Of a DNA stretch of 64,000 nt, positions 12,017-31,090 are shown in pieces. The notes beneath the pieces are model-generated. The model was not told where the DNA came from and searched no databases. It was given only the letters and a program-made list of their open reading frames with translations. The DNA comes from Bacillota bacterium (GTDB lineage: Bacteria; Bacillota_I; Bacilli_A; Acholeplasmatales; Acholeplasmataceae). The DNA lies in NCBI GenBank assembly GCA_043819945.1, contig JBDREH010000036.1:82-64081 (forward strand). Reading direction: 5' to 3'. Position 1 is the first letter of the stretch, and each line of letters begins with the position of its first letter. A program made the position numbers and the translations under genes.

Positions 12017-12556
12017 ATGGTAATCAATCAATCATATATCGATAGAATCAAAAACAAAGATGATGATGCATTTGAATATATTTACGAAGCTACCAAAAGA
12101 GCTGTGTATTCTGTGATTTTTGCTATCACTAAAAATTATTTTGTTTCTGAGGATTTAATGCAGGAAGTCTATATGAAAATGATTGCTTCCATTCATCAAT
12201 ACAAAGAAAACACGAATTTTTATAATTGGATTTTGCAAATCGCACATCATCTAGCAATTGATTATTACCGCAAAAATAAGAGAAAGATTAGTTTGGATAT
12301 CAATGACTATAACGAAATATTAGTTGGCAAAGAACTAAGACCCGATGAAGAAGAACAATTTATGCAGATGATTGAAGTACTAGATGAGGATGAACGTTTG
12401 GTAGTTATTTTAAAAGTTGTTGATGAAATGAAACACCGTGAAATAGCAAAACTGCTTGAAAAACCAATTGGAACAATCATATGGATATACCAAAAAGCGA
12501 TACACAAACTCAAGAAAGTAGGAGAATATGATGATGAAAAAACAGCAAATAATTAA
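12017..12556 (+). CDS. ECF-type RNA polymerase sigma factor
   Basis: Region 2 (AFEYIY...EDLMQEVYMK...FYNWILQIAHHLAIDYYRK) and region 4 (LDEDERLVVIL...HREIAKLLEKPIGTI); RBS supports ATG 12017. Confidence 0.92.
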   Translation: MVINQSYIDRIKNKDDDAFEYIYEATKRAVYSVIFAITKNYFVSEDLMQEVYMKMIASIHQYKENTNFYNWILQIAHHLAIDYYRKNKRKISLDINDYNEILVGKELRPDEEEQFMQMIEVLDEDERLVVILKVVDEMKHREIAKLLEKPIGTIIWIYQKAIHKLKKVGEYDDEKTANN

Positions 12557-13691
12557 CTTATTTAAACAAAATATTGAATCGCATATTCCAACTGCTATGC
12601 CTAGAATTGATTGGAGTCTTGTTCTTGTTGAACAAAGCGATTCCACCTTGTTAAACTTAAGAAAACCTCATTCCAACCTGTTTCCTGGTTTTAAAATGAT
12701 CTTAAGTGTGATGTTTGTTTTTGCAATGATTATCTTTGGAATCGGTTTATTAAACACAAATCCAGTTGAAGAATCTAAGAACCCATACACGAACATTGTC
12801 TATCAAAAGACATTATCAATTTCCGCTGTATCAACAGCAACATTAATCAGCAATTATACTGCGACATCAGTATCAACCAATCAAGCTCTCAGCTTAGCTT
12901 ACGAGCTTGCTGCGACTCAAACAGTTGATACAATAGAACCATATTTAGAAATGATTGAAACAATCACAGGTCAAAACCTAGGTATTGCGATAACAAATGA
13001 AATTTCAGAGAATCCTTTATATGAATCAAAAGTTGTCTTAACCACCTTAGATTTATTAGGAAATGTAATGACATATACACTATACTTCAATTCAATATCT
13101 TACCAAGAGAAAGATAATCAAGTTGAATTTACAATTGAAGGAATCTTCTTATTTAAGAATAGACAATATGAATTTCTTGGGAAAAAAGAGATTGATGGTG
13201 ATGAAGAGATTATTGCTTTTAAAACCATTTCCGATGCCAGTAATTATGTTGAATCAAGCTATAAAATAGAAGATGGAGAAAGCAAATATAATATCAAAAT
13301 TGTTGAAAATGGTGTAATTGTATCACAAAGTAAAATTAGGATAGAAGATGAAGATGGCCAGAAAAAAATTAATTTTGAATATATCGATGGGCAAAATAAC
13401 AGTCAATATGAATTTGAATACGATACTGAGGGTGGCAAAAATATTCTAAAGGTAGAATATCAAACAATAACAAATGGTTTTGAAGAGTCAGGTCAAATGC
13501 AGGTTGAAATTAAAATTGACAGCATTACAGGACAAACTTCATATCAAATATTTGTTAGACCTGATGGCGAAAACGAATATGAGTATGAATCAGACAGAAA
13601 AATAGATCATGATGATGATGACGATGAGCAAGAACCCGATGAGGAGAACGAACGAGACGAAGAAGATGAAGAAGATGAGTCTGAAGATTAA
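12528..13691 (+). CDS. Putative anti-sigma factor, single TM, large ectodomain
   Basis: Overlaps sigma gene end; short cytoplasmic N-terminus, one TM, ectodomain homologous to upstream lipoprotein, acidic tail. Confidence 0.7.
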   Translation: MMMKKQQIINLFKQNIESHIPTAMPRIDWSLVLVEQSDSTLLNLRKPHSNLFPGFKMILSVMFVFAMIIFGIGLLNTNPVEESKNPYTNIVYQKTLSISAVSTATLISNYTATSVSTNQALSLAYELAATQTVDTIEPYLEMIETITGQNLGIAITNEISENPLYESKVVLTTLDLLGNVMTYTLYFNSISYQEKDNQVEFTIEGIFLFKNRQYEFLGKKEIDGDEEIIAFKTISDASNYVESSYKIEDGESKYNIKIVENGVIVSQSKIRIEDEDGQKKINFEYIDGQNNSQYEFEYDTEGGKNILKVEYQTITNGFEESGQMQVEIKIDSITGQTSYQIFVRPDGENEYEYESDRKIDHDDDDDEQEPDEENERDEEDEEDESED

Positions 13692-13997: not shown

Positions 13998-15812
13998 ATG
14001 TGGAAAATTAAAGAAAGATTTGCTCGTGCCAAGAGCTTAATAAGCATTAAAACATATAAAAGACCTTTGATCTATATCATTTCACTCATGGTTATTCTCA
14101 ATCTCATTATTCTTTCAATAGCTGCAGTTATTGCTTTATTCATTGATGATGAATTCAGTAATTTTGTTGATGCATTTGCCAATGGCAGCTTGAAATGGAT
14201 GCTTGCACCTAATGCTATTTTGAGTATACAAAATCCAGATATGCTAGTTTTGGCAGTTATCGTATTAGTTACTGGGATCATTCTATTTTCAGGTACAATT
14301 ATTGCATTAACAACAAATGCAATTAAAGATTATGTTCAAAAGAAAAATAGTGGTTCAGGTAAAATTCATCTAGATCACCACATTGCCATCCTCAACTGGA
14401 ACAGCAAAGTTCCGGAACTCGTATCTGATTTACTCTATGTTGAAGATAAAGAAGTCACTGTGATGATTTTGGCTGATATCGACAAAAATTATGCTGAAAA
14501 ACAAATCATCAATGCAATACATAAGACAAATATTACGCAAAGTATCGTGAAAATGAACGTATTGGTGAAGCGCGGAGATCCATTGTTGAGAAGTGATCTT
14601 TTAGATATTTCAATTGAAAGAGCTAAGGCAATCCTCATCATGAATCCAGACCGTCATCAAACGGTTTATAAAAACATGTCCAAAAGTGATCTAGCAGTCA
14701 TTAAAGTTATTTTAGGACTTGGTCCGATTGAATTTCTCTATGAACCTCCTATCGTTGTAGAGATTAAACACATTGATAGCAGAGAAAAGATTATGACGCT
14801 TTCCAGAGTAGTTGATAAACTTCACGAGCATATCATTATGCCGATATGCTTCGATATGAGACTTGGGCAAATCATAGCACAAACCTTAATTGAAAATCAG
14901 ATTGAAGATGTATATTTAGCATTATTTTCATTTCAAGGTTCTGAAGTATATGCACTCGAACATACAACGTTTGATGAGTGTATAAGCAATAACTCACACG
15001 CTATTCCCCTTACTATTCAGGATGATCTACTTTTTGTATTATCGCTTAGTGACAACGTTAAATCGAAGAAATCCCCACATCTTCATCCTTTGATTAAAAT
15101 GAAAGCAAAACCAATGTCCAACCCATCGGATATTGAAATATTTATTATCGGTAAAAACAATAAGTTGCAATTTATTCTTGACTCACTCAATCAATATGAA
15201 AAGATTCAAAAAAGTAAATTTCAAGCTTCATGGGTTGATGATGAAGATATTTCTGAACTTGTTGCAAAATTGAACCAATCAAACCAATCAACCTCTATTC
15301 TTTTATTAAGTGATGAGAGCCAAGCTGAAGATGCACTTGATGCCAATGTTATTGATAATCTCATTTACCTAGAAGGCAATCTTACGAATAAAAATGTTCA
15401 TATAATCGTTGAACTATTAAATCCTAAAAACGACCCTATTGTTAAAGATTTTAATATCAAAAATACGATCATTTCCAACAAAATAATATCTCTTCTATTG
15501 AGCAAGCTTGCTTTATATAAAAATACAGCTCCATTTTATGAAGACTTGCTGACTATTGAACCCAATGAGAGTAATGTAGATAAGCTGGCAATAACCATCA
15601 AAACTGCCCATGAGTGTTTTGATGAAACCTTTCCTTTAGTTTTCAAATCAAAAAAACAGGCTATCCATTCGATATATGAAAGCTTGAATCAAGAATATAT
15701 AGTTCTTGGATATTTCCACGATAATCAACTCCTTATTTTTGAAAATGATTTACACAAATCAGAAACGATCACTATTCAAGGCGATGATCGAATCATTCTT
15801 ATTCGCATCTAG
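13998..15812 (+). CDS. CASTOR/POLLUX-like putative ion channel (2 TM plus RCK-like domains)
   Basis: Two N-terminal TM helices around a re-entrant segment, then HIAILNWNSK and RGDPL...L.DISIERAKAILIM RCK-type motifs, second RCK-like half. Confidence 0.6.
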   Translation: MWKIKERFARAKSLISIKTYKRPLIYIISLMVILNLIILSIAAVIALFIDDEFSNFVDAFANGSLKWMLAPNAILSIQNPDMLVLAVIVLVTGIILFSGTIIALTTNAIKDYVQKKNSGSGKIHLDHHIAILNWNSKVPELVSDLLYVEDKEVTVMILADIDKNYAEKQIINAIHKTNITQSIVKMNVLVKRGDPLLRSDLLDISIERAKAILIMNPDRHQTVYKNMSKSDLAVIKVILGLGPIEFLYEPPIVVEIKHIDSREKIMTLSRVVDKLHEHIIMPICFDMRLGQIIAQTLIENQIEDVYLALFSFQGSEVYALEHTTFDECISNNSHAIPLTIQDDLLFVLSLSDNVKSKKSPHLHPLIKMKAKPMSNPSDIEIFIIGKNNKLQFILDSLNQYEKIQKSKFQASWVDDEDISELVAKLNQSNQSTSILLLSDESQAEDALDANVIDNLIYLEGNLTNKNVHIIVELLNPKNDPIVKDFNIKNTIISNKIISLLLSKLALYKNTAPFYEDLLTIEPNESNVDKLAITIKTAHECFDETFPLVFKSKKQAIHSIYESLNQEYIVLGYFHDNQLLIFENDLHKSETITIQGDDRIILIRI

Positions 15813-15901: not shown

Positions 15902-16417
15902 ATGAATATCTATGATTTTAATATTAAGAATACTAAGCAACAAGATGTGTCACTTTCAATCTATAAAGACAAGGTGTTATTAGTTGTGAATACAGCAACT
16001 AAGTGTGGCTTTACTCCTCAGTATGCAGCTTTAGAAACCTTATATGAGAAGTACAAAGAAAAAGGATTTGAGATACTGGACTTCCCTTGTAACCAGTTTT
16101 TAAAGCAAGCACCAGGAACAGATGAAGAACTTAAATCATTTTGTACATTGAATTATGGCACTACTTTTGAGACATTTGCTAAACTTGATGTCAATGGGAA
16201 TCATGCTCACCCTGTTTATATCTATTTACGAAATGAGATTCAAAGGGACATTACCGGAGGAAGAAAACCAAGTATCCTCTCAAAACTCGCAACTTCAGAT
16301 CGAATCAAGTGGAATTTCACGAAATTTCTTATAGATAGAAAAGGCAAAGTCATCCATCGTTTCGCTCCCGGATATGAACCTGAGAATATTGCTAGATACA
16401 TAGATGAAGTCATCTAA
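15902..16417 (+). CDS. Glutathione peroxidase family protein (Cys type)
   Basis: VVNTATKCGFTPQY, FPCNQF, IKWNFTKFLID. Confidence 0.95.
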   Translation: MNIYDFNIKNTKQQDVSLSIYKDKVLLVVNTATKCGFTPQYAALETLYEKYKEKGFEILDFPCNQFLKQAPGTDEELKSFCTLNYGTTFETFAKLDVNGNHAHPVYIYLRNEIQRDITGGRKPSILSKLATSDRIKWNFTKFLIDRKGKVIHRFAPGYEPENIARYIDEVI

Positions 16418-16433: not shown

Positions 16434-16460
16434 AAAACACGATAATTTCGTGTTTTTTTT
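16434..16460 (+). terminator. Intrinsic terminator
   Basis: aaaacacga-taatt-tcgtgtttttttt. Confidence 0.8.
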
Positions 16461-16518
16461 GGCAATTCTAACTATGTTTCCCATGAAGAAATTATAAATA
16501 TAATAAACATAAAAAAAA

Positions 16519-16592
16519 TGAAAGCGTTTTTCATGATAGTCTTTTATATCATATAAGAATATGATAAGATATAGGTACAATAACATATGATA
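16519..16592 (+). promoter_or_regulatory. Candidate operators upstream of dehydrogenase operon
   Basis: cre-like TGAAAGCGTTTT at 16519-16530; perfect TATCATAT-AAGA-ATATGATA at 16547-16566; extra ATATGATA half-site at 16585-16592. Confidence 0.45.
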
Positions 16593-16604: not shown

Positions 16605-16910
16605 ATGCGAATTGAAAGACATCCAATTTTAGATTTTCCGAAAAAGCAAGCGATTTTTTTTATGTTTGAAGGCGAAAAAGTGATGGGATTTCATGGGGAT
16701 ACGATTGCTTCAGCACTTCATGCTTTAGGCATAAAAACACTCAGCTATAGTATCAGTAAAAATCGTCCACGAGGCTTTTACTGTGCAATCGGAAATTGTG
16801 CTTCATGCAATATGATTGTCAATGGAGTTCCCAATGTTAGAACATGCATAACATCCCTTGAAGAAAATATGATTGTTGAAAGACAAATCAACAAGGGGGT
16901 AATCAAATGA
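16605..16910 (+). CDS. (2Fe-2S)-binding subunit of flavin amino-acid dehydrogenase complex
   Basis: GDTIASALHA...RPRGFYCAIGNCASC...VRTC; similar to the sarcosine oxidase alpha N-terminus / Fer2_4. Confidence 0.88.
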   Translation: MRIERHPILDFPKKQAIFFMFEGEKVMGFHGDTIASALHALGIKTLSYSISKNRPRGFYCAIGNCASCNMIVNGVPNVRTCITSLEENMIVERQINKGVIK

Positions 16911-17998
16911 CCTATAAAGACTTGATCATTATTGGTGGTGGGCCATCAGGTCTATGTGCAGCTAAAACTGCTTTGGAAGCTGGAATCTCTGTTTTGATTA
17001 TTGATCGCAGTGAAAAACTCGGTGGTCAACTTGTCAAGCAAACTCATAAATTCTTTGGTTCTAAGGATCAGTATGCAAAAACTAGAGGATTTGATATTGC
17101 AGAGAAATTAGTTAAAGATTTGAAAAATTATGAAAATTTGCAGATATTGATTAATGCTACTGTTGTTGGATTGTATAAAGATAAGGTTGTCACTGTTTTA
17201 AACAACGAAAAATATGTGAGATATCAAGCGAAATCAATCATTGTTGCTACTGGAGCAAGTGAAAAGTTTTTGGCTTTTGAAAATAATGATTTACCTGGAA
17301 TCTATGGAGCTGGAGCTACACAAACGCTCATGAATAATTATGGAGTTCTACCTGGAAAAGAAGTTGTCATGATAGGAAGTGGGAACATTGGTCTTATTGT
17401 TTCCTATCAGCTAATGCAAGCCGGAGTCAAGGTCAAAGCCATCATTGAAGCTTCACCTACCATCGGAGGGTATAAGGTTCACGCTTCAAAAATGACTAGA
17501 CTAGGTGTTCCAATCTTGACATCAACAACAGTCAAAAAGGCAATTGGAGAAACAGAAATTAAGGCAATTGAAATCGTATCTTTAGATGAGAAATGGCAAG
17601 AATTACCTAATACGAGTCGAATCATTGAAATTGATGCTCTTTGCATTTCAGTCGGGCTATCACCAATGCATCAACTTTTATCGATGGTTGGAGCTCGCAT
17701 GAAATTTGTTTTTGAACTAGGTGGATTTGTTCCTATTATCGATGATAACAACCAAACAACACAAGACTCCATATTTGTTTGTGGTGATGCTGTAGGTATT
17801 GAAGAGGCAAGCTCAGCAATGATGGAAGGTTATATGACTGGACTGTTTGTTGCCAAACACTTGAATCATCCCCATCCAAATCATGAAAAATTAATTCAAT
17901 ACTATGAAGAACAACTCAAATTGCTAAGAGATGGTCCATTTGGAGAAAAGACTAAAGTAGGACTCAGTAAATTAAAAGAAGGTGACACACATGCTTAA
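16907..17998 (+). CDS. FAD/NAD(P)-dependent oxidoreductase subunit
   Basis: IIGGGPSGL, LGGQL, VATGA, GSGNIGL, GDAVGIEEA motifs. Confidence 0.88.
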   Translation: MTYKDLIIIGGGPSGLCAAKTALEAGISVLIIDRSEKLGGQLVKQTHKFFGSKDQYAKTRGFDIAEKLVKDLKNYENLQILINATVVGLYKDKVVTVLNNEKYVRYQAKSIIVATGASEKFLAFENNDLPGIYGAGATQTLMNNYGVLPGKEVVMIGSGNIGLIVSYQLMQAGVKVKAIIEASPTIGGYKVHASKMTRLGVPILTSTTVKKAIGETEIKAIEIVSLDEKWQELPNTSRIIEIDALCISVGLSPMHQLLSMVGARMKFVFELGGFVPIIDDNNQTTQDSIFVCGDAVGIEEASSAMMEGYMTGLFVAKHLNHPHPNHEKLIQYYEEQLKLLRDGPFGEKTKVGLSKLKEGDTHA

Positions 17999-18473
17999 TC
18001 ATAGAGGTATACCGACAAAAGCACAAGTGCTGTCAAGATTTCCTGATGCAAAAGCATTATTGCGTCCAAAAGCAATTCTCGAGTGTTATGAAGATATTCC
18101 TTGTAATCCGTGTGAAACAAGCTGTCCTTTTGATGCAATTTCGATAGGATCTAATATAAATCTACAACCACAATTGATTGTTGAGGCATGTACAGGTTGC
18201 GGTATTTGTGTGACTAGCTGTCCTGGACTGGCAATTATTGTTGCACAGATCATAAAAGATCAAGCAATGTTCAAACTTCCTTATGAATTTTTACCTTATC
18301 CAAAAAAGGATGAAATATGGCATGGTATCAATCGCAGTGGTGATGTCATCTGTGATGCGAAAATCCAAAGTGTTTTATTCAATAAAAAACAAGATCATAC
18401 CTTGCAGGTTACAGTTTTAGTACCTATAGATTACCTTTATAATTTTGTTACCATAAGAGCTAAACATGAATAA
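17991..18473 (+). CDS. 4Fe-4S dicluster ferredoxin-like subunit
   Basis: C..DIPCNPCETSCP and CTGCGICVTSCP; RBS supports ATG 17991. Confidence 0.88.
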   Translation: MLNHRGIPTKAQVLSRFPDAKALLRPKAILECYEDIPCNPCETSCPFDAISIGSNINLQPQLIVEACTGCGICVTSCPGLAIIVAQIIKDQAMFKLPYEFLPYPKKDEIWHGINRSGDVICDAKIQSVLFNKKQDHTLQVTVLVPIDYLYNFVTIRAKHE

Positions 18474-18747
18474 GCATAATATCATTATTTGTCGTTGTGA
18501 AGACATCACTTTACAACAAGTTCATGATTTACTTGAAGAAGGATATACAACCTTTGAAGATCTAAAGCGACTTTTACGAGTTGGCATGGGACCATGCCAA
18601 GCAAATACATGTGGGCATCTCATTCAAAGAGAAATAAGCAAGTATTTACAGGTCCCGGTTGAAGATGTTGCTATCCAAAAAGTTAGACCTATGACAATGG
18701 GCGTGCTACTCAAGATGATTGCGGAGGATCAAGAAGATGAAAACTAA
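18466..18747 (+). CDS. BFD-like (2Fe-2S) subunit
   Basis: ICRCEDIT...GMGPCQANTC...RP motif. Confidence 0.88.
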   Translation: MNKHNIIICRCEDITLQQVHDLLEEGYTTFEDLKRLLRVGMGPCQANTCGHLIQREISKYLQVPVEDVAIQKVRPMTMGVLLKMIAEDQEDEN

Positions 18748-19882
18748 CGTATTGATCATCGGTGCAGGTATCAGTGGTGTTAGTATCGCTTATAATCTTG
18801 CTAAAAAGGGTGTAAAAGCCATTCATGTCATTGATAAGGGGTATTTCACAAATGGAGCTACAGGACGCTGTGGTGCTGGTGTTAGACAACAGTGGGCGAC
18901 TGAAATCAACTGTGTTCTAGCGAAAATGAGTATAGAATTCTTCTCAAATGCAAAGAAAATACTAAAATATGAAGGCGATCTGGAGTTCAAACAGGAAGGC
19001 TATCTAATTCTTGCTACGACTCAAGATGAGCATGATCAGTTTACTAAAAATATAATGCTACAAAATTCACTGGGCATCCCATCCAAACAATTGACGGTTG
19101 AAGAGGCATTAAAAATTGTGCCACATTTAAATCCCAATGCTTTTATAAGTGCTACATTTTGTCAGACAGATGGTCATTTGAATCCATTTAAGATAACAGA
19201 AGCATATTACTTGGCTGCAAAGCGACTGGGTGTCACATTTTCCTTTTTTGAAGAAGCAGTTACGATTAAAACTCTTGAACACAAAATCGTTGAGGTTGTA
19301 ACCAATAAAGAAGTTTATCAAACAGAAACTGTTGTCAATGCTGCAGGTGGATATGCAAAAGAAATCGGAGATCTTGCTGGTATAGAGATTCCTGTCTATT
19401 CAGAAAATCATGAAATACTTGCTACGGAACCTATTGAAAAAATGCAAGGACCTATGGTCATTTCATTTTCTAAAAACATTTATTGTCAGCAAGTACCACA
19501 CGGTTCATTTTTGATTGGTAGAGGCACACCAAATGTTCCTCAAGGACATGATACGGAATCTTCATGGCAATTTTTAGATGAAATAGCAAAAACTGTGGTT
19601 GATGTCGTACCACTCATTGGCAATCTTCGTGTGATTAGGCAATGGGGAGGATCTTATAATATGTCTCCTGACCGTCAACCTATCATCAGTGATACGGATC
19701 AACTTGAAGGTTTCTACATGGCATGTGGATTCAGCGGTCATGGATTCATGTTTGCACCGATGACAGGATTATTATTGAGTGAAATGATTTTAAACGAAAA
19801 GCCAACAGTTGATATGACTTCACTTCATTTAGATCGTTTTAAGAATATAGATGTAAATCATATTGAAAAATCAGTTGTATAG
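18737..19882 (+). CDS. DAO-family FAD oxidoreductase, probable L-proline dehydrogenase catalytic subunit
   Basis: IIGAGISG, GATGRCGAGVRQQW, MSPDRQPII, GFSGHGFM; sits next to P5C dehydrogenase. Substrate is inferred. Confidence 0.75.
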   Translation: MKTNVLIIGAGISGVSIAYNLAKKGVKAIHVIDKGYFTNGATGRCGAGVRQQWATEINCVLAKMSIEFFSNAKKILKYEGDLEFKQEGYLILATTQDEHDQFTKNIMLQNSLGIPSKQLTVEEALKIVPHLNPNAFISATFCQTDGHLNPFKITEAYYLAAKRLGVTFSFFEEAVTIKTLEHKIVEVVTNKEVYQTETVVNAAGGYAKEIGDLAGIEIPVYSENHEILATEPIEKMQGPMVISFSKNIYCQQVPHGSFLIGRGTPNVPQGHDTESSWQFLDEIAKTVVDVVPLIGNLRVIRQWGGSYNMSPDRQPIISDTDQLEGFYMACGFSGHGFMFAPMTGLLLSEMILNEKPTVDMTSLHLDRFKNIDVNHIEKSVV

Positions 19883-19897
19883 AAAGGGAGTAATCAT

Positions 19898-21454
19898 ATG
19901 GCGATTTATACTTATCAGACAGAACCACTAACAGATTTCACAAACAAAGAGAATATCAAGAAGTATGAACAAGGATTAGCGATTGTTCAAGGGTATTTAG
20001 GGAGACATTACGATCTCATCATTAATGGAGAACGCATTAAAACCACTAAATCAATGACATCCTTAAATCCATCTGATTTTAAGGAATTTGTTGGTACCAT
20101 CTCACAAGCATCAAGAATTGAAACAAATCTTGCGATTGAATCTGCTCTTCGAGCATTTGAAACTTGGAAATATACCAAACCAGAAATAAGAGCTGATGTT
20201 TTATTTAAATCTGCAGCGATCATCAGAAGAAGAAAATTTGAATTTAGTGCATTAATGACCAAAGAAGCAGGCAAACCATGGCCTGAAGCTGATGCGGATG
20301 TTGCAGAAGCGATTGATTTTCTTGAATATTATGGACGTCAAATGATTGTACTCAACCGAGTAGACGACGCTGTTTTGAGTAGAAGAAATATCGAGCGCAA
20401 TGAATATAAATATATTCCACTTGGTGTTGGTGCGATCATTTCACCCTGGAATTTTCCTTTAGCAATTCTTTCGGGGATGACTTCTGCAGCAATTGTATCA
20501 GGGAATACTGTACTGCTTAAACCAGCAAGCACGACTCAAGTCATCGCATATAAATTCATTGAAGTTCTCGAAGAAGCAGGATTGCCAAACGGTGTTGTCA
20601 ATTTCTTACCTGGAAGTGGTGCTGAAATTGGTGATTATATCGTTGAACATCCCAAAATTAGATTCATTTCCTTTACAGGTTCTAAACAGGTTGGTATGGG
20701 AATATATGAAAAAGCAGCAAAAGTAAATCCAGGTCAGATATGGTTGAAAAGAGTCATTGCTGAAATGGGTGGTAAAGATGCAATTGTTGTCGATCGTGAA
20801 GCTGATCTTGATTTAGCTGCGGAATCAATTGTCAAATCTGCCTTCGGCTTTTCCGGTCAAAAGTGCAGTGCATGTTCAAGAGCAATTATCCATGAGGATG
20901 TTTATGATGTCGTCATTGAAAAGATGGTTAAGCTCACTGAACAGATTAAAGTAGGAAACCCTGAAGAACAAAGTATCTTTATGGGACCCCTAAATGACAA
21001 GAAAGCTTTTGAAAAGGTGACTTCGTATTTTGATATCGGTCATCGTGAAGGCAAATGTGTTATTGGTGGTAAGGCTAATCAATCAGTTGGTTACTTTGTA
21101 GATCCAACCATTTTCATTGATTTAGATCCTAATTCCACTCTAATGCAAGAAGAAATATTTGGACCGATTTTAGCTGTCTCTAAAGTAAAATCTTTTGATG
21201 AAGCCATTAAGGTCGCCAATAATACCGAATACGGTCTCACTGGATCAGTGATATCTAAAAACCGGATGCATTTGGAACAAGCAAGAAGAGATTTCCATGT
21301 TGGTAATCTCTATTTAAACCGCAAATGTACAGGAGCAATCGTGGGTTACCAACCTTTTGGTGGTTTCAACATGAGTGGAACTGACTCAAAAGCTGGTGGT
21401 CCAGATTATTTGATATTACACATGCAAGGTAAATCCGTATCTGAAGCACTATAG
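19898..21454 (+). CDS. pruA: L-glutamate gamma-semialdehyde (P5C) dehydrogenase
   Basis: ALDH motifs [38 protein letters not shown], and the RocA/PruA-type end [20 protein letters not shown]. Confidence 0.93.
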
Positions 21455-21490: not shown

Positions 21491-21535
21491 TTAAAAAAAG
21501 ACAAAGACTTGTTTACTCAGTTTTTGTCTTTTTAA
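21491..21535. terminator. Bidirectional terminator between the two catabolic operons
   Basis: ttaaaaaaagacaaagact...agtttttgtctttttaa. Confidence 0.75.
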
Positions 21536-22794
21536 TAGAATTCTTTTCGGATTAAGTTTAGAAAGATAGCAACAATAAGTAAATCAGCTGCTCCACCAAA
21601 GCTAATATGCTTTTGAATCATTTTTTTGTTAAAAGCTTTGAGTTGATTGATTTGAGTCACGTCAGTTTGTTTTAACTCTTCTTTAATCTCGTTATAATTT
21701 TCAATATTACCAGCTCGCTTGAGAAAGACAGTGTCTTCTGAAACTAAAATAAGGTATTTGAGCACATTCCTCAATGTTAAATCTTCATCATCAGTTAAGA
21801 GCTTCATGGCTGATTGGACTGATGAAATCCCCCGATAGGCTTCCCCACGTATACCTGTCATTTTATAGGTCTGATATGCTTTATGTCCTGCAGTTAATTG
21901 ATCTTTTTTGAAATCATCTAGGATCGTTTCAGAGATGATTTTGACGTTTGAATAAATACCATAAAAATCTTGTTGGTGACTTAAAGCATATCCTGTTGCA
22001 AGAAGCGCAAGTCCTAAAATGAAAATTAATCCTTTATATGCGTTAACCCCTTGAGTCATCTGTAACATTTCTTGCTCCGCAGCTATTCCTATGGGTCTTG
22101 TTTGCTCAAGAAGGTTACTTAGATGATCAGAAGTAAACCCAACTTCAAAAAGATCAACAAGATATGGCAGAATTGCTTTTTCAGCTTTCACCATCAATAG
22201 GTAATCCATATCCTGATGAGACCCTTGAGAACTCTTGCTAACAAGACCAAACTTGTCATCTAGATTTAATTCAGTAATGATTGCTTGATGAACGATTTTA
22301 GTGACGATATTTCTTAAATATGACCTAACCTGATTTTCAATAAAACCGATTAATGAATCCACAGGATGAGTTTGATTTCTCGAACAAAATAAAGCATCTT
22401 GATTACATAGATAACATTTACGATTTGGGATATGTAAATCAGTTCTTGATAAAGAAAATTGATTCAAATGAAAAACATCTAAATCGATAAAACGGCCTAA
22501 TGGATGGGTTTCTTCAATCATTACCATATGCTTTTTAATATCAAGCGAATTATTTGTATCCACTGCAAATAAACAATAAGGACCATCAGGACTTACTTTT
22601 ATTTCTGCTTTTTTCAGCGGATATAGATTTTGAATTTTCAGACAAAACAAGCGCACCAATAGATGCGCTTCACGGATATTTTTATTTGTACCAGGTATAT
22701 TGGCTTTGACAAGAATGATTGTATTATCTGGAGTCATTAGATGATTGATCTCATTGAGTCTATTTTCGCGTGCATCTAGCGGATCATTTTTCAT
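21532..22794 (-). CDS. citXG: CitX-CitG fusion (prosthetic-group synthase and holo-ACP synthase)
   Basis: N-terminal GRFIDLDV...RKCYLC (CitX) and C-terminal KGLIFILG, GIRGEA, SFGGAADLL (CitG); ATG 22794 overlaps citC stop. Confidence 0.85.
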   Translation of the reverse strand: MKNDPLDARENRLNEINHLMTPDNTIILVKANIPGTNKNIREAHLLVRLFCLKIQNLYPLKKAEIKVSPDGPYCLFAVDTNNSLDIKKHMVMIEETHPLGRFIDLDVFHLNQFSLSRTDLHIPNRKCYLCNQDALFCSRNQTHPVDSLIGFIENQVRSYLRNIVTKIVHQAIITELNLDDKFGLVSKSSQGSHQDMDYLLMVKAEKAILPYLVDLFEVGFTSDHLSNLLEQTRPIGIAAEQEMLQMTQGVNAYKGLIFILGLALLATGYALSHQQDFYGIYSNVKIISETILDDFKKDQLTAGHKAYQTYKMTGIRGEAYRGISSVQSAMKLLTDDEDLTLRNVLKYLILVSEDTVFLKRAGNIENYNEIKEELKQTDVTQINQLKAFNKKMIQKHISFGGAADLLIVAIFLNLIRKEFY

Positions 22795-23785
22795 CAAAAA
22801 TTGCCTTACCTTTAGATGATTTGAGATAGCGATATGTAACATTTGGAACATAGGATTTCAATACTTCATATTGATGATCTTTTGCTAGTTTTCTAACAAG
22901 TGAAGCACTGACTGTAACTGAATTCTTTTCTAAACGGTTGATGACAATCAACTGATCTTTCAGGATTTGTTTCATTGTTTCATTATAGGCATTTGTTGTA
23001 GGGTCTAGGGGTTCATCACCTACATATCTATAGTCAATTTCAAAGATTCTCATAAAGAAATGAAGGAAAATAGAAATATCAAGTTCCATAAAGAGTAAAG
23101 AAACCTCGTTTAATTCTTTTAGAAAGTAGGTTGGAAAAGTAGCTGAAGAAATGATATATTCCGTTGAGGGAAGTATATGAACATTAGTCATATGTTTTGT
23201 TGCTTTTTTCAAGAGCATCATCCGAGTTTCGAAAGAAAAAACAGATTTGTTTTCCTCAACTAAAAAGATGATAACATGATCATTACTTTTGGCACATGTT
23301 TCAATCAGATATAGATGTCCTAAAGTCACTGGATTACAGTTCATGACAATGGCAGCCTTTGTTCCATGAGATAAAGCTAAATCATTTTTCAGTTTCGTTA
23401 ATTTTTCTTCAATGGTATTGATATTGTTTTCAAACATAACAATCTTCTGATTCTCATAGATAAGTGAAAAAGCGAAATCAACAAAATAATGTTTACTTTC
23501 TTGTGTAGTAAAAAGAAAGTACTTTTCAATACCTTTTGCATTCAGTCTTTGGATTAAGGTTGTTAAAACAAGTGCCGTTAAATTTTCTCCTTGATAAAAA
23601 GAATCAATAGCAATCATTTTAATCACATTCTCATAAAGAGACCCAGTAGCTATCAATTGATTTTCATCATAGAATCCAATGGAAAGAGTAACCTTGTCTT
23701 CGAAACGAAGTCCTTGTTTTTCAAGTAACTGTTTCACATCTTCAAGTTCTTTTGGAGTGATACAATCTCTCATCTGATAATTCAT
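22784..23785 (-). CDS. citC: [citrate (pro-3S)-lyase] ligase homolog
   Basis: GNAT-like N-terminus; AIVMNCNPVTLGHLYL, YIISSATFPTYFLKE, RYVGDEP, VSASLVR. Confidence 0.92.
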   Translation of the reverse strand: MNYQMRDCITPKELEDVKQLLEKQGLRFEDKVTLSIGFYDENQLIATGSLYENVIKMIAIDSFYQGENLTALVLTTLIQRLNAKGIEKYFLFTTQESKHYFVDFAFSLIYENQKIVMFENNINTIEEKLTKLKNDLALSHGTKAAIVMNCNPVTLGHLYLIETCAKSNDHVIIFLVEENKSVFSFETRMMLLKKATKHMTNVHILPSTEYIISSATFPTYFLKELNEVSLLFMELDISIFLHFFMRIFEIDYRYVGDEPLDPTTNAYNETMKQILKDQLIVINRLEKNSVTVSASLVRKLAKDHQYEVLKSYVPNVTYRYLKSSKGKAIFDEK

Positions 23786-25308
23786 GAATGATCACTCCTA
23801 AGTTTATATATACTGTCGATGATTGTTCCATCCCGATAACGAACCACTCCTACCACTTGATCATCATGCAAAATAGATTGAGGATTACCAATCATTTGAT
23901 GTGCTTTGTTTAGCAAATCTTCAATCGTCAAAATTTTTAACTCCGAATGTTCAAGCTTCTTTAAAAGATCAGTTCTTTTAGGATTGATCGCAATACCTCT
24001 TTCAGTCACAAGACAATCGATAGACTCTCCAGGTGTTGTTACTGTTGTGACTTGCGCCTTAACCATGGAGGTTCTCGATTTCATCAAGTTGGTCGTGATG
24101 ATGGAAAGCTTTGCACCATAAGCGGTATCTGCATGACCGCCAGATCCACCAATTATTTTTCCTTTTGAATCGGTTGTAACATTGACGTTGAAATTTAAAT
24201 CAATTTCAGTTGCACCTAAAATAACAATATCTAAATCATTTACCATCGCTGATTTCTCCAGTGGATTTGCATACTTAGAAGCACTCATGAATTGATGATT
24301 TGGATTTCTTTTCAGTGAAGAAATAGCTTCATGATCAAAACACTGAACGTCGTATAATCGCTTAAATAAGCCAATTTCGTGCATCTCTACTAAGTAACTT
24401 GTAATACCACCAGAGGCAAATGATCCCTTGATGTTATGTTTAATCATGCTCTTTTTTAGTTCTTCAGCAACAGCTAGACTGGTACCGCCAGCTCCAGTTT
24501 GAAAACTCATATTTTGTTTTAAGTAACCCAGTTCTTCAATTAAGCGCGCTGTATCTTTGGCAATCTTGAGCTGAACTGGATCTCTTGTAGGTTTCGTAGT
24601 ACCAGAAACGATACCAGAAGCATCCCCAATCTTATCGACATTAATAATATAGTCAATATATTGGGCCTCAATTTCAATAGGGTCAATCTTGTTAACTAAA
24701 TGATCAGTGATGACTACTTTATGTTTTGCATAGAGCATATCAGCAATTGCATAACCTAATGTGCCACATGCATTTGGACCATCAATACCATTACCGTTAC
24801 CTTCATCATCACTATTTGGAACTGCGATAAATGCCACATCAATAATCAATTCTCCTGATTCGATCGCTCTTGGTCGTCCGCCATGTGTATCCATGACAAG
24901 TAAGTCCATTAAATATCCTTGACAGATAGCATCAGCAACCGGTCCGTTGATATAATTCGTATATATTTGAGTTACATTCTTATTTTTGATGAGTTCTACA
25001 AGAGGTTCATGAACCGGAAAAATGGCACTAGGAGCAAGTGTCATATTTGTTAAATTACGCTTTTTAATTTCTTCGAAAACCATATTCATGATACCATCAC
25101 CATTTCTCAAATGATGATGAAAAGAAAGAGTCATCCCATCATGAATGGGTATCATATCAAATAACTTTGATAGATTTTCGACTGATTTCTTGGTGTTTGT
25201 TGTCAACACTTTAGAAATTAAAGGTCTTTTTTTAATTTTAAGGAAATGATCAGCACCTTGATAAGGAATCATCCCTAAAGGTACATGACGATTCAAAGAG
25301 TTATTCAT
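23782..25308 (-). CDS. citF: Citrate/citramalate lyase alpha subunit (acyl-ACP transferase)
   Basis: SFHHHLRNGD, THGGRPRAIESG, FQTGAGG, FNVNVTTDS.G.IIGGSGGHADTA, VTTPGE. Confidence 0.92.
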   Translation of the reverse strand: MNNSLNRHVPLGMIPYQGADHFLKIKKRPLISKVLTTNTKKSVENLSKLFDMIPIHDGMTLSFHHHLRNGDGIMNMVFEEIKKRNLTNMTLAPSAIFPVHEPLVELIKNKNVTQIYTNYINGPVADAICQGYLMDLLVMDTHGGRPRAIESGELIIDVAFIAVPNSDDEGNGNGIDGPNACGTLGYAIADMLYAKHKVVITDHLVNKIDPIEIEAQYIDYIINVDKIGDASGIVSGTTKPTRDPVQLKIAKDTARLIEELGYLKQNMSFQTGAGGTSLAVAEELKKSMIKHNIKGSFASGGITSYLVEMHEIGLFKRLYDVQCFDHEAISSLKRNPNHQFMSASKYANPLEKSAMVNDLDIVILGATEIDLNFNVNVTTDSKGKIIGGSGGHADTAYGAKLSIITTNLMKSRTSMVKAQVTTVTTPGESIDCLVTERGIAINPKRTDLLKKLEHSELKILTIEDLLNKAHQMIGNPQSILHDDQVVGVVRYRDGTIIDSIYKLRSDHS

Positions 25309-25315
25309 GATTCAC

Positions 25316-26179
25316 CTATAGGAGATGCCACTTCTCAGCTTTTTCCAATAATTTTTTTGCGCGTTCAATAATTGGTTTGTCAATCATTTTACCGTCCACA
25401 GAAAAAGCACCTTTCTTTTCCTTTTCAGCTAAAAGGAGTGCCTGGAGTATTTTTTTAGCATGCTCTATTTCCTGTTGAGTGGGGACGAATACAGTATTCA
25501 CAATATCAATTTGGTTTGGATGAATACAAACCTTAGCAGTCATACCTAAACTTTTGGCGTTTATTGAATCCTTCATTAAGCCTTTCTCGTCTTGAGTATG
25601 CGTAAATGGTGTATCAATAGCATCGATTTGATGTGCTTTCGCAGCTAAAACAACGAGACTTCTCGATAGAAGAATCTCAAGACCAATCTCAGTCCGTTCA
25701 ATTTCCAAGTCTGTTGCAAGGTCTTCACCACCAAGTAAGAGGCCATTGACACGATTCACAGAAGCAATTTGTCCAACCTCTATAACAGACTGTGCATTTT
25801 CAATGATTGGCACAATTCCAATATTTTTGGTCATCTTTTTTTGTTTTTCAATTTTATCAAGTAGCTTTGATAAATAAAGGGTATCCTTATATGTAGCTTT
25901 TGGAAGCATAACTGTGTCAATTTTGTCATTGATTATCGTTTCAATATCATTTTTAGAAAAAGGGGTTTCCAAACTATTGATTCGAACGATAACTTCAAAA
26001 TTTTCTATTGGAAAAGTCTTGAGAAATTGCTCTAGTAAAAATAAAGCTGCATCCTTTTCAGAAAGCATGACTGCATCTTCAAGATCGAAGATAATTCCAT
26101 CAGCAGCAAAAATATCAGCATTTTGTAACATTGCTGGAGAATTTGCAGGTATAAATAATAGACTTCTACGCATGATCAT
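25316..26179 (-). CDS. citE: Citrate/citramalate lyase beta subunit
   Basis: RRSLLFIPANSP, FDLEDAV, VRIN, GGEDL, DTPF, CIHPNQI. Confidence 0.92.
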   Translation of the reverse strand: MIMRRSLLFIPANSPAMLQNADIFAADGIIFDLEDAVMLSEKDAALFLLEQFLKTFPIENFEVIVRINSLETPFSKNDIETIINDKIDTVMLPKATYKDTLYLSKLLDKIEKQKKMTKNIGIVPIIENAQSVIEVGQIASVNRVNGLLLGGEDLATDLEIERTEIGLEILLSRSLVVLAAKAHQIDAIDTPFTHTQDEKGLMKDSINAKSLGMTAKVCIHPNQIDIVNTVFVPTQQEIEHAKKILQALLLAEKEKKGAFSVDGKMIDKPIIERAKKLLEKAEKWHLL

Positions 26180-26426
26180 CACTCATCCTTCTTATAGCAG
26201 TCAATAATCTAGCTTTAATCGTATAATCTAGTGCTCCCTTGTCATTTATGGTTACATGGATATTTTTTATGTTGAGCTCTTTTAAAGTGTCTTGAATCAC
26301 TCTATTAATCTGATCTTTAAATTGATCATACACAATGCTTTTAATATCGATAGTCATGCCTGTTTGTTTTTTTACGGTAATTAAGCAATCATTTGATTCA
26401 AATGTACCAGCTGATGCTATTTTCAT
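26166..26426 (-). CDS. citD: Citrate/citramalate lyase acyl carrier protein
   Basis: AGTFESND (prosthetic-group Ser), DKGALD...KARL.TA. Confidence 0.92.
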   Translation of the reverse strand: MKIASAGTFESNDCLITVKKQTGMTIDIKSIVYDQFKDQINRVIQDTLKELNIKNIHVTINDKGALDYTIKARLLTAIRRMSDDHA

Positions 26427-26434
26427 CAAATCAC

Positions 26435-27679
26435 CTATTTTCTTGCGTTTGATCGTGCAATGACGCGTTCCATTTCATTTTTTACAATCATGAAACCACC
26501 GTCTACATCCATACCTGGCTTGGCTAAACATAGATCTGCTTGACAAGCAATGGCGACATTGGTTGTAGCGATTGCTGAAATATTAGTTTCATTGCATGTT
26601 CCACCACAATATGCACCAATATGATTTTCTTTACAATAGATGATTGCCTCAGCAATATTATTTAAACCACCTAAATCAGGTGTTTTTATTTGCAAAATGT
26701 GTCCTGCCTTATTGTCTGCAAAATACTTAATGTCATCTAGAGTATTGCACCATTCATCAGCAACAATTTCCACACCGATATTTTCGTCATCGATTCTTTT
26801 TCTGATGTCTCTTAGAGCAATCATTGTTCCTTCACGATCACCAGTATCGATAGGTCCTTCGAGTCTGATCTTAAATGGTTGTGCGACTTTTTCTAGTGAT
26901 TTGATGTAGCTTATGATTTTATCAAGATCATTATCAAAAGCAATACCAATCGTCCCATAAACATCAATATGCAAAATTGGCATATATTTATCATTTTGTC
27001 TATACTTGAGGATGCGTTCTTTCAACCACTTAACATAATCGAGTAACAATTCACCTCTATACCCCAATTTTTCCTTTACATTATTAATCAGTGCGTGAGG
27101 TAATGAATCTACTTCTTTGAGAATCATTTTATCAACATTGGTATAGCGGTCATCACCTGTTTGAGCAAAAATAGGAACTCTCTTTAGTTGTTTATATTCA
27201 GGATTATATTCATCTCTGATGACTTCTGCAAGAGTTCTTTTAGTAGATATGGCTACTGCACTGAGTAAAGCTTGTGTAATGCCATACCTGATTGCAGTAT
27301 GCATTCTTTGGCCATTGATTTGCATATGGTCGTATTTTTCTGAAAGCATCTTGAAGATAGATACATCTTCACCTATGAGTAGTGGCTTGATATGCTGCTC
27401 TATCCAAGGAAGATAATCTCCTGCTAAAAATAAAGGATCTCTTCCTCCAGCACCTGAATATTGAACAGCAGCACAATCGCCAATTCCAATATCACCATTT
27501 TCGAGAATGAGTTGGATGGAGATAGCTTCACCAGGAACTCTAATATTTGCAAAGCCAGATGTCATTGGACTTCCGACATATAGAAATCCATCATGATCTG
27601 CTCCGCGTTTGATTGCTTTTTGATCATCAAAGTAGAATCCTGTATAAGATTTGGTTAGAATTACGTCAATAATTTTCAT
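26435..27679 (-). CDS. mal: Methylaspartate ammonia-lyase
   Basis: [67 protein letters not shown]. Confidence 0.97.
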
Positions 27680-29148
27680 GTTCTATTTTTGTTTTTTGCT
27701 GGTCTGCCAATCAATTGACCTTGACTGACGGCATAAATGTCATCAACTGTCATCTGGAAGGTGATTGGTCTGCCTTCAACTCTTGACCTTTCTTTTAGTT
27801 TAGCCTTGTGAAATTCTCTAATTTCTTGATTCATTCCGAGATTGCCAAATTCTAAGATGCGAACGCAACCCTCATTATCTCTAGCGGGTAGAACTTTATT
27901 TGCATTTTGCTTGCTTGGAGCAAAGGGAACATCAAGAACTCCCATCTCGAATGCTTTGATTGTTCCTACAGCTAGGTCGTCATTGCCAAGTTTATAAACT
28001 TCTGTTAGAAGTGACTCAACTTCCTTGCGAATTTGTTTCATCTCATTTTTCAGTTTTGTTGTTGCTGGATATTTTTGATCTTGCAATAAGGAAACAACCA
28101 TTTTTGATGCACGAATGCCATATGCATTGATTTCTTTGGTGGGAATACCAATGGATTCATAAGGTGTTTTAGTAATCATCTTTGTCGCACCAGAAAGTGC
28201 TGCGACAGTTGATGCCATGGAAATCAAACCAGTTGCTGCCGCTTCATCTTGTGGAAATCCACCCATCCATTGATGGAAAACGGTTGTAACTGTCATATTT
28301 TCATAGCCATATTTTTTTAAATATTCTTCTGTGAGTTCTTGTAATATCCTAATAGAAGCAATATCTTGTATGACATTTCCACATTGCCCATAACCAACAG
28401 TAATGTTTTTTACTCCTTGCTCTGCTGCAAGAAGTGATTCAATAATGCCAATGGTTATTGAAATTGAAGGGGGAACGAGTGTTCCTGTCAAAGGTCCAAA
28501 TGGTTCACGGTTGATACTAATGCCATGATCCTCGTAATATCCAACTAAGCGATCACAATATTGCCAATAATAAAGAGAATCTGCAATCGATATGTTTTTT
28601 GCATAAGGTAAGTTGTAAGAAATGCCCCCTCCTTCATTGGAAGTCCAACCTGCTGCATGGATAATTTCTGCTAGTAATCTTCCATCAGGGGTACCATGTC
28701 TTGCTTGAAGAGGTACATTAACAGAGTCTAGTACTTGCTTACATGCGCGAACACCATGATTGACTGCAGGAAAACCATTGAGTAGTGACCTGCCCTCTTG
28801 AACGCTCATTTTGATACCTTCTTCAACTTCTTGATATCTGTTGTGTCGTGTATATGAATCAATAGTTGCAGGTAAAAAATCAGCCCCTGCTGCTTCTAGA
28901 TATTGCATCAATTCAATGTGCTCATTGAGTAATGCAACTCCGGCTCTTGGCTGTAAATAAGTTCTTTTCTGTTTTTTTGCTTCAATCAATTTTAATGCGA
29001 AATTTTTATGTGGGGGAACATTGCGTAGCGTTTCAACAGCAACATCCAAGTCTAATAATGGATCATTGCCTGTAGGCCATGATGATAAGACTTCCTTACG
29101 AACCTCTAAAAATTTTTCGAGCGGCCATTTCTTGTTAACGACTTGCAT
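27676..29148 (-). CDS. glmE: Glutamate mutase (methylaspartate mutase) E subunit
   Basis: [54 protein letters not shown]. Confidence 0.97.
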
Positions 29149-29158
29149 AATTTTTCTC

Positions 29159-30541
29159 CTAAATTTCAGTGATGTGTTTCTTCATAATTTTCAAAGCTAT
29201 TTCAGGATGATCCATGCTTAAAAGACCCATTGCTGACAAAATATAAGCTTTATCGAGTAAGAATTTTGGTGCTTTTGGTCTTAACTCCATGGATCTGCTT
29301 TCAATTTTTGTTGCTCTTTTCAGCATCTTAACAGGATCTTTACTGCTGATGACAACACCACCAGTTCCTATGAAGTAATTTGCCTTTGTTAAATCCTTGC
29401 CAACTTGATAATACATAATTCCCATAGGTGTATAAACACCTTTAAGTGTACCTACGTGTCTTGAGGTTGCTGTATCTATACATCTTGCAGCAAGGATGTC
29501 ATCAACGATATAATCATGATCAGATTCAGAAATAAAATCAATATGCTTAAATCTATTCGTTGCTTCCATGACTATATCAATGCCCTTTTTATTGAAATGG
29601 CTAATCTCAGAGGGGCTCATTGCACTTAAAACTCCAAGGGCAGAATAGCGCATACCCAAATCACCTTCAACTGTTCTTTTTGCAAATGGCTCTTCGAGTC
29701 CACTGAGTAGCGCATTCATCTGAGTAGGTAAACCAGCAGCCATTGAATAGATGTCTGTGGTTGCACCACCAACATCAGCAATCATTAAATCACCTAACCC
29801 TGATTCATTGTCAAAACCCGTCGAAAGTAGTTCTGCAGCCATTAATACGGCATTTGGAGTTGGCACAACCACTCTATCGATGGTTTTCTCTATTTTTTTG
29901 ATTCCTTTTGCTTCTATAATATTTTTAACAAATATTTCCTTGATTTTATCTTTAGCACTGTTAATGTTCAACACATTAAGACGTGGCATTACATTTTCAC
30001 AAATATAAAAATCCTTTTTTGCAGCTGATAGAATTTCTGTTATTTCATCTGCTGCATCTTTATTTCCAGCAAATACAATAGGTGCAATGACTGAAGAATT
30101 TGCCAGTTTTTTGGCATTATGAATGACACATTCAGAATTTCCTCCATTTGCTCCTCCAGCAAGTAGCACGATATCTATATTCTTATCTAGAATACTTTGA
30201 ACTTCGGCATTATTGATATTATGTGACAAAACAAGCTCAACCTTGGCTCCAGCACCTAGACAAACTCTAGTGGCAGCTTCGGTTGTCAGTTCTTCAACTA
30301 GACCAATTGCGACCATCTTTAAGCCGCCAGCAGCAGAAGAGCAAGCAATAATTCGATCAAAATCGATTTTTGATCCAATTTTCTCATATAGTCTTTCCAA
30401 AGCCTTTTCATACCCAATAACAATATTGGTATCTACAGTAGTTATCGCTTTAGAAGTAGCAATGATATCTTCACGATCCAAATCCACAGCTGTCAATTTC
30501 GTGAATGTTGATCCAAAATCAACCAATAAGTAATTAGGCAT
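29159..30541 (-). CDS. glmL: Glutamate mutase accessory/reactivating protein (MutL/GlmL)
   Basis: [41 protein letters not shown]; located between the S and E subunits. Confidence 0.93.
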
Positions 30542-30948: not shown

Positions 30949-30995
30949 TTTTCCTCCGGTCAAATTGCTCTTAATCTGGATTTTTTTCAAAAAAA

Positions 30996-31090
30996 ATAAA
31001 ACGTTTTCACACACTTGTATTTTAATACAAAGAGCAAAAAAAAACAACAGTTATCCGTTGTTTTGCGTTTAAGATTTTTAATGATATAAT
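30996..31090. promoter_or_regulatory. Divergent promoters of glm-mal-cit and fum operons, with cre-like site
   Basis: Minus strand: TTGTTT(31047-42)-17-TAAAAT(31024-19) then TGAAAACGTTTT (31009-30998). Plus strand: TTGCGT(31063-68)-16-TATAAT(31085-90) with TG. Confidence 0.6.

Follow-up and report, generated by a model that had tools for sequence, protein, structure and literature searches.

A predicted bacterial counterpart of the archaeal PDH2-type proline dehydrogenase, encoded beside a glutamate-fermentation island in an Acholeplasmataceae genome

We examined a 64,000-nucleotide stretch of contig JBDREH010000036.1 (assembly GCA_043819945.1) from a bacterium of the Acholeplasmataceae, hereafter the window, and focused on the six genes at positions 16605-21454. 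The first five are a bacterial counterpart of the multi-subunit proline dehydrogenases of Thermococcales archaea, not a new kind of enzyme. On the homology of its subunits, the cluster is a dehydrogenase of the alpha-beta-gamma-delta type in which alpha is split into two genes, here called alpha-N and alpha-core. We estimate a probability of roughly 80% that the six genes encode a five-polypeptide proline dehydrogenase complex together with a dehydrogenase for delta-1-pyrroline-5-carboxylate (P5C), and that the two feed glutamate fermentation. L-proline is the substrate we infer, from the identity of the best solved relative of beta (1Y56_B), the locus context, the co-occurrence of genes among relatives and the elimination of other routes.

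In the list of open reading frames of the window, the interval is filled by six co-oriented genes on the plus strand (Table 1). The first five overlap successively by 4, 8, 8 and 11 nucleotides, the second overlap becoming 17 nucleotides if gene 3 begins at its GTG, and a gap of 15 nucleotides separates gene 5, which encodes beta, from the P5C dehydrogenase gene. Gene 1 begins at the ATG at position 16605. For gene 3 the ATG at 17991 is the most likely start, judging from its homologues, because these begin at the aligned methionine. The beta protein on record is the 381-residue product that starts at 18737. The sixth protein passes the equivalog cut-offs of two P5C dehydrogenase models, with 772.5 bits on TIGR01237 (cut-off 659.65) and 850.2 bits on NF002852 (cut-off 648). 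The next gene downstream, on the minus strand at 21532, converges on the operon.

Table 1 Features of the operon and its surroundings in the window. Positions are those of the window; identities are from BLASTP comparisons with the PDH2 subunits of Thermococcus guaymasensis. aa, amino acids; FAD, flavin adenine dinucleotide; NAD(H), nicotinamide adenine dinucleotide.
Feature	Position	Strand	Family match or conservation	Identity to PDH2
Subunit alpha-N, 101 aa, predicted 2Fe-2S protein	16605-16910	+	Pfam Fer2_4, E 1.6e-25	52% (alpha residues 1-97)
Subunit alpha-core, 363 aa, predicted FAD- and NAD(H)-binding flavoprotein	16907-17998	+	Pyr_redox_2, E 1.3e-35	48% (alpha residues 118-473)
Subunit gamma, PdhF-like, ~160 aa, predicted ferredoxin-type 4Fe-4S protein	17991-18473 (GTG alternative 17982)	+	Fer4 families	37% (gamma, full length)
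Subunit delta, PdhX-like, 93 aa, BFD-like four-Cys domain	18466-18747	+	Fer2_BFD, SO_alpha_A3	43% (delta)
Subunit beta, PdhB-like, 381 aa, DAO-family flavoprotein	18737-19882	+	DAO, E 2e-63	42% (beta)
L-glutamate gamma-semialdehyde (P5C) dehydrogenase, 518 aa	19898-21454	+	TIGR01237, NF002852	
Cre-like box ATGAAAGCGTTTTTCA upstream of the operon	16518-16533	+	Kept as ATGWAAGCGTTTTT in at least eight Acholeplasmataceae relatives (alignment)	
Candidate operator: palindrome TATCATAT-N4-ATATGATA running into a -10-like hexamer	16547-16566	+	Kept as TATCACATAAATATGTGATA in relatives	
Methylaspartate route of glutamate fermentation: citXG, citC, citF, citE, citD-like (citramalate lyase), methylaspartase, glutamate mutase E/L/S; class I fumarase-type mesaconase	21532-32509	- (mesaconase +)	Pfam	

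Our reference for the archaeal enzyme was a protein of Thermococcus guaymasensis (P0144), found in a search of 1.8 billion representatives. Its locus (L101) encodes a PDH1 alpha/beta pair and then the PDH2 subunits alpha (Fer2_4 and Pyr_redox_2 domains), gamma (Fer4), delta (BFD/A3) and beta. The window order of alpha-N, alpha-core, gamma, delta and beta is collinear with this set, and the corresponding order pdhA, pdhF, pdhX, pdhB has been published for T. litoralis and T. profundus (PMC4364671; PMC4575208). All subunits of the window are closest to PDH2, while their counterparts in PDH1, a Ti-plasmid opine dehydrogenase (L102) and the sarcosine oxidase SoxBDAG (L103) share 24-34% identity over comparable lengths (BLASTP). 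For example, alpha-core is 24% identical to PDH1 alpha and 26% identical to both the opine dehydrogenase alpha and SoxA, and beta shares 34% with PDH1 beta, 27% with the Ti-plasmid opine dehydrogenase beta and 25% with SoxB. Delta also aligns with the C-terminal ~85 residues of the alpha subunits of PDH1 and opine dehydrogenase. Among solved structures, the best relative of beta is 1Y56_B, the beta subunit of the Pyrococcus horikoshii L-proline dehydrogenase (238 bits, E 1e-69; SoxB reaches about 112 bits), and the best match of alpha-core is 1Y56_A (89 bits). An earlier note on this DNA had described an archaeal-style, multi-subunit proline dehydrogenase and had warned that such clusters attract misleading automatic names. 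The homology holds for every subunit and for their order, the warning was apt, as sources label beta "sarcosine oxidase subunit beta", and the domain types, overlapping junctions and 15-nucleotide spacing that the note listed all recur in our open reading frames and in the Pfam and NCBIfam matches.

The residues expected to hold the cofactors are retained. Alpha-N has the motif C60-x4-C65-x2-C68-x12-C81, which fits the 2Fe-2S motif given in PMC4575208. Alpha-core has two GxGxxG motifs, with G157, G159, N160 and G162 invariant in an alignment that includes Thermococcus, and a conserved glutamate after the second motif would fit NAD(H) binding. Eight cysteines of gamma (C35, C41, C44, C48, C70, C73, C76 and C80) are invariant across 20 sequences, Thermococcus among them, as are C9, C11, C44 and C49 of delta and R301-x-W303 of beta in the respective alignments with Thermococcus; beta also has the FAD fold. 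The five polypeptides probably assemble into one complex, a reading supported by domain fusions that connect all of its parts. Alpha-N and alpha-core are one protein in archaea, and delta is joined to alpha in PDH1 and opine dehydrogenase. Gamma and delta form a single 267-residue protein in Acidaminobacter (L089, 7198-8001), and delta stands at the N-terminus of beta in proteins of about 500 residues (P0129, P0146, P0149 and P0180). In a structure prediction of alpha-core, beta and delta with gamma as partner, a control in which beta was replaced scored equally, and we used this prediction neither for nor against binding.

Comparison with known systems places the cluster nearest to Thermococcales PDH2 (PdhA/PdhF/PdhX/PdhB of T. 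profundus; PDH2 of P. horikoshii), with which it shares the four subunit types, their order, and the Cys, dinucleotide and R-x-W motifs; in both, the domain content suggests no membrane segment. The window differs in that alpha is split at about residue 100-117, in its host, which is a mesophilic, wall-less bacterium, and in that the bacterial betas form a clade of their own. Its operon also includes the P5C dehydrogenase, whereas the 7 kb on each side of the Thermococcus locus have none but hold the tandem PDH1 pair. PDH1 of P. horikoshii (alpha4beta4; PH1363/PH1364, 1Y56), although it supplies the best solved relatives of beta and alpha-core, has no gamma ferredoxin subunit and carries delta fused to the C-terminus of its alpha, and this alpha binds adenosine triphosphate where PDH2 alpha binds FAD (PMC4575208 Table S2).

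The opine dehydrogenases, the D-hydroxyproline dehydrogenase LhpB/E/F and the hydrogen cyanide (HCN)-forming enzyme HcnABC resemble the window in their small 2Fe-2S subunit, Pyr_redox_2 alpha, DAO beta and overlapping genes, as seen on the Ti plasmid. A separate small 2Fe-2S (gamma) subunit, as in the window, is described for the bacterial opine and D-hydroxyproline dehydrogenases, and the enzymes of this group are reported to be membrane-associated (PMC4575208). These alpha4beta4gamma4 enzymes have three subunits, no eight-Cys PdhF protein and a delta fused to alpha. We rejected this type for the window, where delta has a gene to itself and an eight-Cys gamma gene is additionally present. The Ti-plasmid opine dehydrogenase, at 26-29% identity to the window, stands in for LhpB and HcnC, so that the comparison with those two is indirect.

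The heterotetrameric sarcosine oxidases SoxABDG share a Fer2_4-like N-terminus, Pyr_redox_2, an A3 domain and a DAO beta with the window proteins, and these common domains account for the automatic sarcosine-oxidase names. The names given by sources to beta orthologues are "FAD-binding oxidoreductase" or, at JGI, "sarcosine oxidase subunit beta", and our assignment corrects these widespread labels for the window genes. SoxA has about 1000 residues, with a folate-dependent C-terminal half, and is accompanied by SoxD and SoxG (L103), none of which was found here. The sarcosine oxidase type was rejected, as the match of the window proteins to the soxA model TIGR01372 (996 positions, cut-off 1164 bits) is confined to positions ~14-483 and reaches 38.7 and 168 bits; alpha-core aligns to positions 168-483. 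A further point of reference is PutA/PutB (PF01619), for which the proposed reaction and the pairing with P5C dehydrogenase are the same, but the fold is an unrelated TIM barrel and the electrons reduce membrane quinone. We propose that the cluster does the work of PutB with proteins of a different family.

To place the cluster in a wider genomic context, we collected 80 related loci from named genomes, using a nine-sequence alignment as the query of the locus search. The loci come from Acholeplasmataceae, Izemoplasmatales, Haloplasma, Erysipelotrichaceae, Tissierellales, Sedimentibacter, Acidaminobacter, Alkaliphilus and others. The five-gene arrangement is not a product of chance, since the order is identical in all 80 wherever the contig reaches far enough. 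Directly 3' of beta, a TIGR01237-type P5C dehydrogenase is present in 41 loci (Acholeplasmataceae, Izemoplasmatales, Haloplasma, Inordinaticella and Erysipelotrichaceae), and an aldehyde dehydrogenase of a different type adjoins the cluster in three more (L061, L085 and L100). The one in Sporosalibacterium faouarense (L061, 9219-10850) scores 810 bits on TIGR01236 (cut-off 614), the other, non-orthologous family of P5C dehydrogenases, and its position beside the cluster suggests that an enzyme for this second step was recruited independently.

In 16 of the 80 loci, all clostridial (Maledivibacter, Acidaminobacter, Alkaliphilus and others), the genes after the cluster encode a polyferredoxin and an aldehyde:ferredoxin oxidoreductase (e.g., L079, 9660-12300; L089; L092). 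This oxidoreductase, of about 720 residues, takes the place of the P5C dehydrogenase and may be a tungsten-dependent oxidase of glutamate semialdehyde. On their upstream side, these clostridial loci have a sigma-54 activator and, often, an SNF transporter. Across the whole set, a prolidase-like M24 peptidase resembling PepQ follows the cluster in 11 loci, and a sodium-dependent SNF transporter lies 5' of it in seven. The independent recruitment of three unrelated types of aldehyde-oxidizing enzyme points to glutamate semialdehyde as the product. Overall, beta is conserved at 53-81% identity across orders; of 300 species genomes sampled from the class, 57 carry a close orthologue (at least 55% identity), as do 33 of 179 genera, with the occurrences clustering in four or five families, and many amino-acid-fermenting Clostridia have the operon as well.

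We then followed the genes among 41 relatives of the order, this genome included, a sample that consists essentially of two genera and hence of few independent events. Beta was found in 24 of the 41, P5C dehydrogenase in 26 and glutamate mutase E in 25; the two additional P5C dehydrogenase matches are fragments at contig ends, in genomes that are 81% and 63% complete. None of the three was found in 15 relatives. Glutamate mutase E is accompanied by the proline cluster in 24 of the 25 relatives that carry it, mostly on the same contig and a few kb away, and the P5C dehydrogenase gene also comes directly after beta in the relatives whose coordinates are listed.

The co-occurrence bears on a further explanation, namely that the five genes are a general electron-transfer module of the NADH:ferredoxin type with no role in proline metabolism, whose adjacency to P5C dehydrogenase is inherited synteny. 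The counts do come mostly from one genus, whose members are not independent, and archaeal PDH2 alpha reportedly shows NADH dehydrogenase activity by itself, in work attributed to Kawakami et al. in 2004. Against such a module stand beta itself, a complete amine-oxidizing DAO flavoprotein kept at the conservation given above, and the recurrence of a glutamate-semialdehyde-oxidizing neighbor of three unrelated types in distant lineages. We consider the module explanation highly improbable, and prefer the proline dehydrogenase.

Other sources of P5C were sought in this genome, which is 99.97% complete. No match to Pro_dh (PF01619) was found among the window proteins, in this genome or in any of the 41 relatives, and this genome yielded no class-III aminotransferase (Aminotran_3), no P5C reductase dimer domain and no member of the proline racemase/hydroxyproline epimerase family. 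Ornithine was rejected as the source of P5C because there is no class-III aminotransferase in the genome, and a biosynthetic P5C pool because there is no P5C reductase. A D-hydroxyproline route was likewise rejected, as the epimerase family is missing and the aldehyde dehydrogenase is of the wrong type. With the PutA-type, ornithine-aminotransferase, P5C reductase and racemase families not found, no other source of substrate for the P5C dehydrogenase is visible. The conversion of proline through P5C to glutamate, which the earlier note had suggested, thus draws support from the context across lineages, from co-occurrence and from the lack of another P5C source in the genome.

Immediately beyond the operon lies the methylaspartate route (Table 1), which ferments glutamate to pyruvate, acetate and ammonia (PMC8473912). 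Elsewhere, the genome carries PFOR, Rnf and two [FeFe]-hydrogenases. Neither a UbiA-family prenyltransferase, which quinone synthesis requires, nor cytochrome bd was found in this genome, and with no UbiA-type enzyme its gene content shows no quinone pathway. A quinone-reducing PutA would find no acceptor here, which provides a rationale for a soluble iron-sulfur flavoprotein. In the scheme that we propose, the DAO-family beta would oxidize L-proline to P5C, and the electrons would reach the alpha flavoprotein by way of the four-Cys delta, the eight-Cys gamma and the 2Fe-2S subunit, to be handed on to soluble carriers, NAD+ and/or ferredoxin. The co-transcribed P5C dehydrogenase would then turn P5C, or glutamate semialdehyde, into glutamate, to be fermented by the adjacent methylaspartate pathway. 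Both the electron path and the acceptor, be it NAD, ferredoxin or both by confurcation, are predictions from the sequences. The earlier note had suggested transfer to NAD or ferredoxin, possibly with bifurcation, a proposal that the sequence motifs and the lack of quinone and oxidase genes render reasonable.

Several observations weigh against this interpretation. In a quick maximum-likelihood tree of 61 betas, the window sequence falls in a Mollicutes-type clade within a Bacillota clade, and the PDH1 and PDH2 betas of Thermococcus group apart, in another clade of the same broad family. The bacterial betas are not sister to those of Thermococcus; numerous uncharacterized clades separate the two, and the tree does not resolve its deep nodes. 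(The Agrobacterium sequences sit on very long branches, and their position in the tree was not used.) Neither a proline transporter beside the operon nor a proline transporter or peptidase elsewhere was found in the window. The energetics are also problematic: the midpoint of the proline/P5C couple is near -120 mV, far above NAD+ and ferredoxin; proline oxidation alone cannot reduce either carrier, and the simple scheme has no thermodynamically adequate acceptor. A characterized bacterial member was not found, the literature that we searched giving only archaeal heteromeric proline dehydrogenases; nor did it contain anything relevant on a bacterial, Acholeplasma or Izemoplasma enzyme of this type or on a bifurcating proline dehydrogenase. 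Neither glutamate nor casamino acids supported growth of a cultured relative, Peloplasma aerotolerans (beta 80% identical); its description gives no result for growth on proline and mentions neither the proline cluster nor the glutamate-fermentation module (PMC11122141). Finally, the opine dehydrogenase BjOpnDH2 is near the archaeal L-proline dehydrogenase by BLAST and yet does not use L-proline (PMC4575208).

Because a near relative of the archaeal enzyme does not use proline, similarity alone is insufficient to assign the substrate. The enzyme might instead act on another cyclic or N-substituted amino acid, such as trans-4-hydroxy-L-proline, D-proline, D-hydroxyproline, sarcosine, pipecolate or an opine, with the link to P5C dehydrogenase being indirect. 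The D-hydroxyproline, opine and HCN-forming enzymes of the wider family share the domain set, and the JGI name and the poorly resolved deep nodes of the beta tree leave room for such a substrate. The subunits, however, are only 25-29% identical to those of Sox and opine dehydrogenase, versus 37-52% to PDH2. Sarcosine fits poorly with a window that has no folate-binding SoxA C-terminus, no SoxD and no SoxG, and D-imino acids would have no route into the pathway in a genome without the racemase/epimerase family. The aldehyde dehydrogenase fails the ketoglutarate-semialdehyde dehydrogenase equivalog (374.8 bits against 770) while passing the P5C dehydrogenase cut-off. Moreover, the neighborhood of these five genes has, in different lineages, gained P5C dehydrogenases of two non-orthologous families and a peptidase resembling PepQ. 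We therefore regard a different main substrate as unlikely and favor L-proline, although the enzyme may have a side activity on hydroxy-L-proline.

As to the energetic problem, the acceptor of a proline dehydrogenase in this host could be found through confurcation with reduced ferredoxin, in O2 under microaerobic conditions, or in another partner. In a flavin-based electron confurcation, proline and reduced ferredoxin would together reduce two NAD+, by analogy with acetogens and their lactate dehydrogenase/Etf system. PFOR, acting on the pyruvate of the methylaspartate pathway, could supply the reduced ferredoxin; in Clostridia, the co-encoded tungsten aldehyde oxidoreductase could do so. Confurcation is attractive because an NAD(H)-type flavoprotein and a ferredoxin-like subunit are conserved and are repeatedly paired with ferredoxin-reducing enzymes (aldehyde:ferredoxin oxidoreductase and PFOR). 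We nevertheless put it forward as a speculative and rather doubtful proposal. If true, it would explain how quinone-less anaerobes oxidize proline, and why the NAD(H)-binding flavoprotein and the eight-Cys subunit have been kept from Thermococcus to Mollicutes.

Under microaerobic conditions, the enzyme could alternatively be a proline oxidase or an O2-linked dehydrogenase that donates its electrons to O2 instead of NAD or ferredoxin, with H2O2 or water as the product. Such an acceptor would remove the thermodynamic problem, and the DAO/sarcosine-oxidase family does include true oxidases. P. aerotolerans tolerates air, with a preference for microaerobic conditions (PMC11122141), and a glutathione-peroxidase gene lies directly upstream of the operon here and in five close relatives. 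This adjacency is confined to the closest relatives, though, and a hairpin with a T-run, read by eye on the plus strand, splits the peroxidase gene from the operon. The archaeal enzymes are described as dehydrogenases linked to dyes, not as oxidases, and a simple oxidase would need neither three iron-sulfur subunits nor an NAD(H)-type Rossmann motif. In addition, the same operon is common in strict anaerobes, beside oxygen-sensitive tungsten enzymes. An O2-linked enzyme thus appears quite improbable to us, and the dehydrogenase that delivers its electrons to soluble carriers remains the preferred assignment.

The region upstream of the operon contains two conserved elements. The box kept as ATGWAAGCGTTTTT looks similar to the catabolite-responsive cre consensus of CcpA, and the palindrome, perfect in its conserved form TATCACATAAATATGTGATA, is a candidate operator (Table 1). 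Both are conserved in at least eight Acholeplasmataceae relatives, while the surrounding sequence is not, and together they suggest sugar repression combined with a dedicated regulator. A scan for promoters and terminators gave sites no more numerous than in shuffled sequence. The hairpin followed by a T-run, at about 16434-16460, lies at the end of the glutathione-peroxidase gene and was read by eye as a candidate plus-strand terminator of that gene; the scan listed this stem on the minus strand only.

The glutathione-peroxidase gene itself spans 15902-16417 and holds the same position in the five close relatives mentioned above (L021, L022, L023, L026 and L059). A functional tie to the operon, for instance through peroxide from flavin autoxidation, is a guess, with the hairpin and T-run standing between the two. 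Farther upstream, the open reading frames at 13998-15812 (604 residues) and 12528-13691 (387 residues) have no significant match to a Pfam or NCBIfam family, the former showing a sub-threshold RCK-like match only. Outside the window, the same genome has a second pair of DAO (492 residues) and Pyr_redox (432 residues) proteins (G000:C9:27043-29900), which we take for a probable glycerol-3-phosphate dehydrogenase set (GlpA-like) rather than another proline enzyme. In one relative (G008:C8:8224-9549), the glutamate mutase E gene contains an in-frame TGA, which may reflect an error in sequencing, a pseudogene or recoding.

The same question of the electron acceptor arises for the archaeal enzymes, whose characterization to date has relied on artificial dyes. 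For the many fermenting bacteria that carry this operon, the predicted complex offers a concrete and testable answer to how proline may be degraded without PutA and quinones. In the genome studied here, it would complete a compact island leading from proline to glutamate and on to pyruvate, acetate and ammonia, and would thereby alter the metabolic picture of the free-living relatives of Acholeplasma.

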